DNA of 26,514 bases, from UHGV virus genome UHGV-0108392; one strand, 5' to 3'. The notes beneath the pieces are model-generated. The model saw only the letters and a list, made by a program, of their open reading frames with translations, searched no databases and was not told where the DNA came from. The position numbers were made by a program, and so were the translations under genes. This document shows, one piece after another, positions 5,967 through 7,564 of this stretch. The DNA is from a virus. Each line of letters opens with the position of its first letter. Position 1 is the stretch's first letter.

Positions 5967-6782
5967 ATGAGCAGACATGCAACAGATTGGGCCTGGGAGA
6001 CAGATCCAGGTAGCTCATCATTAAAGCTCATACTGCTCTCGATGGCTGACAGAGCCGATGAATATAACCTCTGCTACCCCAGCATAGAACGCCTCGTTAA
6101 AGACACTTGCCTGAATAAAAAAACCGTGCAGGCCGGGCTTATATCGCTCATGAAAATGGGGCTTATTTCAGATACCGGAGAGAGAAAGGGAGCGACAAAA
6201 AGAGTGCGGGTTTTCTCTCTTAATATAACCAAAAACGGGAACATTAAAGGCAACCGGGAAGGGGGTAATGAACCCGAAAACGGTAATTTTACCGAAAACG
6301 GGAATATACCCAAAAACGGGATGTTGAATGATCCCAAAAACGGGATGTTGAATGATCCCAAAAACGGGATCCAGAACCAGTCATATAACCAGTCATTTAA
6401 CCAAGAGAGGGAGAGCAGGACAAAAAACGGGGATTCTGTGTCTCATGACCCCGGCGCAAACAACGCCGTGATGAATAACTTTGTTCCTCCTGGTGGGCCA
6501 GGGCAATTAGGCAAATTTGTCATGCATGAACAATGGCAACCATCAGATGACTTTCTTCGGAAAAGCTCATTGCAGGGGATCTACCTGGACAGTCTGCCAA
6601 CGGCACAGGAACTTGCAGAGTTCAGAATTTACTGGATGGCTGAGGGTAAGGCATACCATCAGGCACAGTGGGAGCAGAAGCTGGCAAGGAGGCTGCAGAT
6701 TAGCAGACAGAAGCAATCAACATTACCTGATAACAACGTTCCGCACTGGAACAGCCCTGAAGCATGGGAGGATTTCTTGTGA
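5967..6782 (+). CDS. Replication initiator (O-like; N-terminal HTH, C-terminal DnaT-like region) containing the origin iterons
   Basis: N-terminus (DWAWETD...LKLILLSMADRADEYNLCYPSIERLVKDTCLNKKTVQAGLISLMKMGLI) fits phage replication-initiator HTH proteins. A central repetitive linker is encoded by the iterons. Immediately upstream of the P-like gene. Confidence 0.7.
   Translation: MSRHATDWAWETDPGSSSLKLILLSMADRADEYNLCYPSIERLVKDTCLNKKTVQAGLISLMKMGLISDTGERKGATKRVRVFSLNITKNGNIKGNREGGNEPENGNFTENGNIPKNGMLNDPKNGMLNDPKNGIQNQSYNQSFNQERESRTKNGDSVSHDPGANNAVMNNFVPPGGPGQLGKFVMHEQWQPSDDFLRKSSLQGIYLDSLPTAQELAEFRIYWMAEGKAYHQAQWEQKLARRLQISRQKQSTLPDNNVPHWNSPEAWEDFL
6229..6434 (+). repeat. Iteron array (putative origin of replication) inside the initiator gene
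   Basis: Eight or more direct copies of CC(A/C/G)AAAACGG(G), including two perfect tandem 24-mers CCCAAAAACGGGATGTTGAATGAT (6309-6332 and 6333-6356); these encode the repeated P(K/E)NG peptide. Confidence 0.65.
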
Positions 6783-7564
6783 ACAACGTTTTTACCGCGA
6801 TACAAAACCGTGACGGAGAAGCCCTTTCTCGCATGTCAGGTTATGAGCATCAGTACACCAACAATGACAACGTGGTGAACATGTCAGCAGAGAGGCTTGT
6901 TGATGCCCTTTTCAAACAGCTGAAACAACTGTTTCCGGCGGCAGTGGTAACCAACCTGAAGACGCCAGAGCAGGAAGTTGCTGCAAAACAGCAGTGGATT
7001 GCTGCGTTTGCCGAAGGGGGGATCCGAACCCGTGAACAGGTTTCTGCTGGTATGCGCCACGCCCGCGCCAGTGAGTCTCCGTTCTGGCCGTCGCCAGGGC
7101 AATTCATCAAGTGGTGTAAAGACAGCAAGATGGTTCTTGGCGTCACCATTGACGATGTGATGGCGGAGTTTCACCGGTACAGCAAGGAAAAAAGTTTATA
7201 TCCTGGTGGTCCCGAAAGATTCCCGTGGCGACATCCGGTTATGTACTGGGTCGTATGTGATACCCGCCGTGCAATGTATCAGCGCCAGCTTAGCGAGATT
7301 GAGGTTGAGAAACACGCGCGCAGGCTGCTCGATGATTGGGCGAAAAAGGTAGCTTCCGGACAGCAGATACCCGATCCGGTGATCAGCATACAGGCAAAGC
7401 GAGAGCCCATGAGTACACCTCCGGACACAGGGAGAGACGTTTACCATCCACCAGGGCGAAGTTTCGGGTGCATGCCTAACGCCGCCACCCTTGGGGGAAT
7501 AACACCGGCGCAGTGGCTGATGGAGGAATACAGGCGGGGAAAGGCGGCAGGATTTATCAAGTAA
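6779..7564 (+). CDS. Replication protein P-like (DnaB helicase loader)
   Basis: Clear similarity to lambda P as recalled (REQVSAGMRHARASESPFWPSPGQFIKWCKDS versus lambda MEQVNAGMRVARRQNRPFLPSPGQFVAWCREE). A GTG at 6779 has a GGGAGG RBS and overlaps the O-like stop; an alternative ATG lies at 6764. Confidence 0.8.
   Translation: MNNVFTAIQNRDGEALSRMSGYEHQYTNNDNVVNMSAERLVDALFKQLKQLFPAAVVTNLKTPEQEVAAKQQWIAAFAEGGIRTREQVSAGMRHARASESPFWPSPGQFIKWCKDSKMVLGVTIDDVMAEFHRYSKEKSLYPGGPERFPWRHPVMYWVVCDTRRAMYQRQLSEIEVEKHARRLLDDWAKKVASGQQIPDPVISIQAKREPMSTPPDTGRDVYHPPGRSFGCMPNAATLGGITPAQWLMEEYRRGKAAGFIK

Follow-up and report, generated by a model that had tools for sequence, protein, structure and literature searches.

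The window analysed here is a stretch of 26,514 nucleotides (UHGV virus genome UHGV-0108392) that represents a phiV10-like prophage of Escherichia coli (genus Uetakevirus), and the element in question is a group of short direct repeats in the middle of one of its genes (5967-6782), which encodes a predicted replication initiator. Six repeats of the form CC-N6-GG, between positions 6225 and 6371, are very probably the iterons of the prophage replication origin, lying inside the gene of the protein that would bind them. That lambdoid phages have their origin within the gene for the initiator is textbook knowledge. The evidence in the present case is drawn from sequence comparisons and comprises the position of the array, frame and codon tests across homologues, its linkage to the N-terminal domain of the initiator, a gene fusion in Edwardsiella phage GF-2 and the adjoining lambda P-family gene, all of which support the lambda-like iterons within the initiator gene that had been proposed in a first-pass annotation of the window.

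The repeat array in the initiator gene

The core CCNAAAACGG is present in six exact copies in the window, all on the + strand and all within 140 bp (6229-6367), with their CC starting at 6229, 6274, 6292, 6310, 6334 and 6358 (Table 1). By shuffling, 0.20 copies would be expected by chance, and none of 100 shuffles gave six. When scored with a weight matrix derived only from homologous sites in other species, the six sites reached 16-22 bits, against 9.1 bits for the top match elsewhere in the window. Tandem Repeats Finder returned a 24-mer, CCCAAAAACGGGATGTTGAATGAT, in 2.6 copies of 100% identity (6309-6370), in keeping with the perfect tandem 24-mers described in the first-pass annotation, and a separate 12-mer, AACCAGTCATAT, in 2.4 copies (6375-6403). 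The iterons are spaced 18-24 bp inside two blocks, with 45 bp from iteron 1 to iteron 2, and the top strand of the region (6221-6434) is composed of 42% A and 15% T. The array itself, as first annotated, is therefore real, and six of the 'eight or more' copies then counted stand; the doubtful seventh, with CAAAAAACGG at 6421, scores at background level (8.5 bits), is polymorphic among 75 close relatives (AAAAAGCGG in 33, AAAAAACGG in 25 and AAAAACCGG in 12) and is probably non-functional, and an eighth was not found in the window.

The array corresponds to nucleotides 262-465 of the initiator open reading frame (ORF), between the parts coding for the HTH_36 and DnaT domains. As part of the ORF, the iterons double as coding sequence for a flexible (P/T)(K/E)NG linker that joins the two domains and changes in length as iterons are gained or lost. 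The six good copies are translated TKNG, PENG, TENG and, three times, PKNG, which bears out the repeated P(K/E)NG linker noted earlier; the doubtful seventh would again give TKNG. Across related prophages the copy number changes by whole units, and close relatives illustrate such gains and losses (BP9 has one 24-mer fewer, phiV10 one 12-mer more). The initiators of relatives range from 263 to 311 amino acids (aa) and their 24-bp units from 1 to about 7, and the database entries of 279, 287, 291, 292 and 311 aa contain duplicated blocks of several iterons or as many as seven MLNDPKNG units.

Two side observations concern the nucleotide sequence of the tandem units. Iterons 5 and 6 (6330-6371) contain three GATC (Dam) sites, the densest GATC cluster of the window, which may indicate a link to Dam/SeqA control; GATC is also found within the iterons of GF-2, and is not part of the family consensus. 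On the minus strand, the terminator-like matches at 6317-6336 and 6341-6360 are explained by adjacent iterons, whose GGGAT and ATCCC arms pair over the 24-bp unit ahead of the T-run in the complement of the motif; in single-stranded form, tandem iterons could fold into hairpins.

Table 1. Coordinates of the initiator gene, its repeats and the adjoining loader gene in the window.
Feature	Position	Strand	Remarks
Replication initiator gene	5967..6782	+	816-nt ORF, 271 aa; N-terminal winged-helix, repeat-encoded linker, C-terminal DnaT-like domain
N-terminal winged-helix (HTH_36) coding region, presumed iteron-binding domain	5967..6233	+	40-87% identity across 80 species-level loci
Iteron 1 (ATAACCAAAAACGGGAAC)	6225..6242	+	Exact core; 19.1 bits; core unaltered in 73/75 close relatives
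Iteron 2 (GAACCCGAAAACGGTAAT)	6270..6287	+	Exact core; 21.0 bits
Iteron 3 (TTTACCGAAAACGGGAAT)	6288..6305	+	Exact core; 16.1 bits
Iteron 4 (ATACCCAAAAACGGGATG)	6306..6323	+	Exact core; 22.4 bits; opens 24-bp tandem
Iteron 5 (GATCCCAAAAACGGGATG)	6330..6347	+	Exact core; 22.2 bits; 5-bp dyad arms ATCCC/GGGAT; one GATC
Iteron 6 (GATCCCAAAAACGGGATC)	6354..6371	+	Exact core; 22.3 bits; 6-bp arms GATCCC/GGGATC; two GATC; invariant in 75/75 close relatives
Three 12-nt repeats ((C)AGAACCAGTCAT / ATAACCAGTCAT / TTAACCAAGAGA)	6372..6407	+	Adjoin last iteron; candidate unwinding element
Doubtful seventh copy (AGGACAAAAAACGGGGAT)	6417..6434	+	One mismatch; 8.5 bits, background
DnaT-like C-terminal domain coding region	6516..6722	+	aa 184-252; Pfam DnaT 1.1e-15
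Lambda-P-type helicase loader gene	6764..7564	+	ATG 6764, or GTG 6779 per phiV10 annotation; overlaps initiator gene

Constraint on the repeats and their link to the N-terminal domain

The repeats were compared across 84 homologous loci, made up of four phages (PPompW, Edwardsiella GF-2, Vibrio H20 and Acinetobacter AP22) and 80 loci from a one-genome-per-species collection; the sequence diversity comes from this collection, two scans of viral contigs having yielded near-identical E. coli prophages only. Homologues of the N-terminal domain, with 40-87% identity, occur in Gamma-, Beta-, Alpha- and Deltaproteobacteria, including Escherichia, Edwardsiella, Vibrio and Acinetobacter, and at most of these loci a CC-(A-rich N6)-GG array is found at the same position, directly 3' of the N-terminal domain and often with 24-bp spacing, while a few (e.g. 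locus L197) are without one. In the 360 bp past the N-terminal domain (29.9 kb in total), the motif CCNAAAAYGG was matched 139 times on the coding strand and once on the opposite strand, and 12 matches were found in 481 kb of flanking strand-sequence. The family consensus, AAnAgTCCCAAAAACGGnACnnTT, has a partial dyad symmetry that extends past the core, as would suit an initiator that binds in dimeric form.

The way in which these motifs are read differs between and within genes. The sites fall into the three reading frames in numbers of 100, 28 and 11, with 24 loci using at least two frames and three using all three; lambda's four iterons likewise fall in three reading frames. In GF-2 and PPompW, ACCCAAAAACGGGA is translated TQKR and the remaining copies PK(N/I)G; in Acinetobacter sp. 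ANC 3789 (L212), the variant GTyCCAACAAyGGrAC is translated PTTE, SQQW and SNNG within a single gene; and two frames are used by the three copies of CCGCCGGAAACGG at a high-GC Desulfovibrionaceae locus. Among 104 motifs in the PKNG frame, the Lys/Glu codon ends in A in all cases, compared with 69% elsewhere in the same genes (p=1e-16), and Asn is encoded by AAC in 100 of the 104, compared with 46% elsewhere (p=5e-27). The use of three frames together with the fixed synonymous positions argues that the repeats are kept as a one-strand nucleotide sequence of which the peptide is a by-product, and on this comparison they are to be regarded as DNA elements.

It could be argued that the repeats are selected purely as protein, as a low-complexity (P/T)(K/E)NG linker that expands and contracts by slippage, the DNA having no function of its own. 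A regular linker rich in Pro, Asn and Gly between two folded domains, polymorphic in length and with cores that are no less variable than the rest of the gene within the population (see below), would fit such an explanation. It is nevertheless very improbable, the tests of frame and codon use having gone most of the way to refuting it, as the motif gives unrelated peptides in its three frames (PKNG, TQKR and PKTE, or PTTE, SQQW and SNNG), its synonymous positions are fixed and its strand bias is 139 to 1.

As judged from the homologues, the array travels with the N-terminal domain, independently of the C-terminal domain and of the partner gene. HTH_36 was matched by all 77 full-length homologues, most of whose C-terminal halves gave no Pfam match, the others matching DnaT (8), Phg_2220_C (5) or DnaA_N (2). 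The downstream gene belongs to the lambda-P family in 15 of 65 cases and otherwise encodes a DnaB-type helicase, a DnaC/IstB-like ATPase, a Toprim primase or an unrelated protein. Conversely, SPN1S and Tyrion (both Uetakevirus) and the Shiga toxin (Stx) phage TL-2011b (L249, L250 and L251) have the same DnaT domain with an unrelated N-terminus, and neither HTH_36 nor an internal array was found in them; their origins must be differently organised or located elsewhere. The most telling case is gp62 of Edwardsiella phage GF-2, in which a window-type N-terminal domain and an array of CCCAAAATTGGG are fused to a C-terminal domain 62% identical to aa 156-299 of lambda O (2e-67) and followed by P, so that N-terminal domain and array stand exactly in place of the N-terminal domain and ori iterons of lambda O.

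This linkage also bears on whether the repeats might be sites for a protein other than the initiator, such as a host nucleoid protein, Dam/SeqA or a phage repressor. The GATC cluster of iterons 5 and 6 and the A-tracts, which are typical for bending proteins, would be compatible with such sites, but we consider this very improbable, given that the array is strictly tied to one N-terminal DNA-binding domain in hosts from Acinetobacter to Desulfovibrio and is gone where that domain is replaced, that the family consensus is without GATC and that the repressor-type palindrome of the phage (TTACCT-N3-AGGTAA) is different.

Some variants were noted among the homologues. One Acinetobacter clade (among loci L188-L246) has the variant iteron CC-AAyAAy-GG in place of CC-rAAAAC-GG, and the N-terminal domains that go with AAAAAC-type and AACAAy-type iterons differ at positions 17, 19, 55, 57, 59 and 60, of which 55, 57, 59 and 60 are in the presumed recognition helix. 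This residue switch was not retained as a specificity signal, the AACAAy type being confined to a single Acinetobacter clade and thus confounded by ancestry. In a metagenome-assembled genome of Sphingomonadales (L247:1501-2877), the winged-helix domain and the iterons are separated by some 110 aa inserted in frame, which contain a GIY-YIG-like motif (HYVYRLIHPETGQYYIGVRS) and may be an insertion of the homing-endonuclease type.

A putative origin and its relation to known replication systems

In the proposed model, transcription from the early rightward promoter would yield the 271-aa initiator, whose N-terminal winged-helix domain would bind each iteron. A dimer is the probable binding form, since the best copies read as imperfect palindromes (GATCCC-AAAAAC-GGGATC). 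If lambda is a guide, the bound initiators would bend and strain the DNA and thereby open the adjacent 12-mer, A-rich stretch (approximately 6372-6410); the DnaT-like C-terminal domain could then engage the exposed single strand and/or the P-like protein, which would in turn bring the host DnaB helicase. We infer these roles of the initiator in binding, unwinding and helicase loading by analogy with characterised systems.

The 12-mer element that follows the last iteron is a candidate unwinding element. In 61 homologues, CAGAAyC...GAAyC...GAAyC (repeats of about 12 nt) followed by an A-rich run is found past the last iteron, the Acinetobacter form being AGAATCTACCAAAGAATCTACCAATAGAATCTAAAAATAAAAA, and the stretch is AT-richer than its own gene in 57 of the 61 (mean +9.8 points). 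The element is always in a single frame, and its conservation may therefore be at the protein level. These features bear on the possibility that the repeats are initiator sites for autoregulation, copy-number control or incompatibility (titration or handcuffing), with replication starting elsewhere in the phage genome. Plasmid iterons are generally known to have such roles (reviewed in PMC4980987), no strong AT-rich tract adjoins the array in the window, and there are no DnaA boxes close by, the only one of the window being 1.7 kb away. Sites of control alone are nonetheless improbable, in view of the AT-richer 12-mer, A-rich element past the array in nearly all homologues that have it, as in lambda, of the exact replacement of the N-terminal domain and ori of lambda O in GF-2, and of the window containing no further copy of the motif to mark a second site.

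Several observations weigh against an origin at the array. The stretch after the iterons in the window is only weakly AT-rich (+3 points, 56-60% AT, 75th-84th percentile of 40-bp windows), and a strong or obvious AT-rich unwinding tract was not found next to the array. Long dyad arms (5-6 bp) are confined to iterons 5 and 6, those of the other iterons being 2-3 bp. Among 67 near-identical alleles, polymorphism in the iteron cores (20% of sites) is not reduced relative to the remainder of the gene (11-13%); most of the core changes occur in one allele only or affect degenerate positions, and the alignment is confounded by repeat shuffling, so that the comparison is a poor guide to constraint. 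The initiator gave no match to Pfam Phage_rep_O (PF04492) at E<=10, against 8e-37 for lambda O itself, and hhalign of a 45-sequence profile with lambda O gave a weak result (probability 13%). A literature search found no binding or origin-activity experiments for this initiator family.

As regards kinship with lambda O, BLASTP found no similarity between the two proteins, while the same regions of PHROG profiles 678, 345 and 270 are matched by the N-terminal domains of both, and HHpred has been reported to link lambda O to HTH_36 (Brezellec et al. 2017, PMC5509034). Remote homology of the two N-terminal domains is thus likely on profile evidence, and the label 'O-like' given to the initiator in the first-pass annotation is apt for its architecture and probable distant descent, and does not extend to membership of the Pfam lambda O family.

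An origin at the window array would resemble ori of lambda in several respects. Both consist of direct repeats placed between the regions coding for the N- and C-terminal domains, and the best copies of the window share the internal dyad ATCCC...GGGAT of lambda; both have A-rich centres (ATCCC-AAAAAC-GGGAT in the window, ATCCC-TCAAAACGA-GGGAT in lambda), a top-strand A/T asymmetry and a P-family loader directly downstream. The lambda iterons (ATCCCTCAAAACGAGGGA and similar) are spaced 20, 24 and 23 bp and followed by an A-rich tract, compared with 18-24 bp in the window. The two differ in that the window has six iterons and lambda four, the arms in the window are 3 bp closer (CCC-N6-GGG versus CCC-N9-GGG), the AT-rich tract of the window is far weaker and its initiator, unlike lambda O, has a DnaT-like C-terminal domain. 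In Stx phages 933W and P27, six lambda-type iterons are found instead of lambda's four, the O protein being correspondingly longer, and the extra iterons are needed for replication (PMC7466680); iteron number varies and alters linker length in these phages as in the window family, but their O proteins and iteron sequences are genuinely those of lambda, unlike in the window.

Three further systems share parts of this organisation. DopC-DopE is a domesticated, chromosomal and vertically inherited O/P-like pair of Cellvibrionales and Oceanospirillales with the same architecture as the window pair, namely an HTH_36 N-terminal domain and a DnaT C-terminal motif followed by a lambda-P-family protein (PMC5509034 Fig. 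3), and no iterons were found in dopC by its authors (PMC5509034); the window gene, which is phage-borne and has six iterons, looks like the undomesticated form of DopC. E. coli DnaT shares its single-strand-DNA-binding part (residues 85-170) with the C-terminal domain of the initiator, but is without the winged-helix N-terminal domain or iterons and acts in PriA-dependent restart, not at an origin. The initiators of iteron plasmids are winged-helix proteins that bind a direct-repeat array beside an unwinding element (PMC4980987), and pPS10 (RepA), R6K (pi) and RK2 (TrfA) have this arrangement, as proposed for the window. Their iterons lie outside the rep gene and DnaA boxes are usual, whereas those of the window are inside the gene with no DnaA boxes near, and the initiator gave no match to Pfam Rep_3.

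Prophage setting and wider implications

The initiator gene is 97-99% identical to genes in phages phiV10, phiv142-3, EC.W1-9 and PAS61, and was found in 424 of 5,426 complete E. coli genomes (~8%). Existing annotations call it merely 'DnaT-like' or 'primosomal protein'. Its product matches Pfam HTH_36 at aa 18-67 (1.8e-10) and DnaT at aa 184-252 (1.1e-15), with a low-complexity linker between the two domains, and PHROG profile 1032, 'replication initiation protein' (4e-108); aa 180-265 match residues 85-170 of E. coli DnaT in the solved structures 9zbt, 6aep and 4ou6 (7e-21). The downstream loader gene matches Pfam Phage_lambda_P (PF06992) at 1.5e-56 and its product is 31% identical to lambda P (8e-36). 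The initiator gene is preceded by a cro-like gene and, on the minus strand, by a repressor-like one, and this arrangement of repressor, cro, initiator and P is the layout of a lambdoid early-right operon.

The principle of iterons inside the initiator gene is known from lambda, and the window array is a further, well-supported example that will not surprise a specialist and leaves the concept of the origin unchanged. A description of CC-N6-GG iterons was not found in the literature, the epsilon15 and phiV10 genome papers and the review by Weigel and Seitz being outside the coverage of the search, and papers on the replication types of Stx phages make no mention of them. For phiV10/Uetakevirus-type prophages, the array places the probable origin at a defined 150-bp site. 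It also suggests a rule for annotation, by which an HTH_36 initiator gene followed by CC-N6-GG repeats would serve as an origin finder for uncharacterised temperate phages of Acinetobacter, Vibrio, Edwardsiella and others, and it supplies the missing phage-borne, iteron-bearing counterpart of DopC-DopE. Co-resident prophages with the same iteron core may disturb one another's replication.

A broader interpretation, which seems rather unlikely at present, is that the winged-helix domain, the CC-N6-GG iterons and the 12-mer element form a portable origin cassette, with a core near-constant across phages of Gamma-, Beta-, Alpha- and Deltaproteobacteria, that has been recombined with at least four kinds of helicase-recruiting module. 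If so, unrelated co-resident prophages would share initiator specificity, and in E. coli O157, where phiV10-like and PPompW-like elements alike have CCCAAAAACGG, replication of the one could be activated, titrated or excluded by the other. Initiators of the DnaT-like kind might then pass the opened origin to the loader via single-strand binding, a route unused by lambda, which could explain the domestication of DopC-DopE after iteron loss.

Circular records may offer hints of autonomous replication. The E. coli plasmid pZ1323HEC0067-2 (L253, NZ_CP148379.1) is circular, 8,461 bp long and composed of Qin/PPompW-type prophage genes, including a dicA-like repressor, cro, ydaT, a DnaT-like PPompW-type initiator with CCCAAAAACGG sites, a short P, hokD and rem. 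Initiator and P are its only annotated replication genes, and plasmid typing gave no replicon; the record represents either a naturally occurring mini-replicon of the lambda-dv kind or an artefact of assembly. Two circular records of 41,027 bp correspond to whole phiV10-like genomes, and these are suggestive only, as they too may be assembly artefacts.

Two phage records and one further motif of the window are mentioned for completeness. The 138-kb Vequintavirus record of Escherichia phage BP9 (L002, PP488543.1) contains a phiV10-like repressor, initiator and P module at its end (133-138 kb), and the 115-kb record of phage PH444 (PP350014.1), which is without annotation, also contains the initiator gene; both look like chimeric assemblies or contaminating prophage sequence. 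The palindrome TTACCT-N3-AGGTAA is present in the window in 10 copies with at most 2 mismatches (4497, 4559, 5271, 5319, 5480, 5656, 7602, 7664, 11489 and 14698), compared with 0.6 expected. Two of them occupy the space that separates the divergent repressor-like and cro-like genes and others fall in intergenic gaps flanking the replication genes, and the palindromes are likely operators for the phage repressor or Cro.

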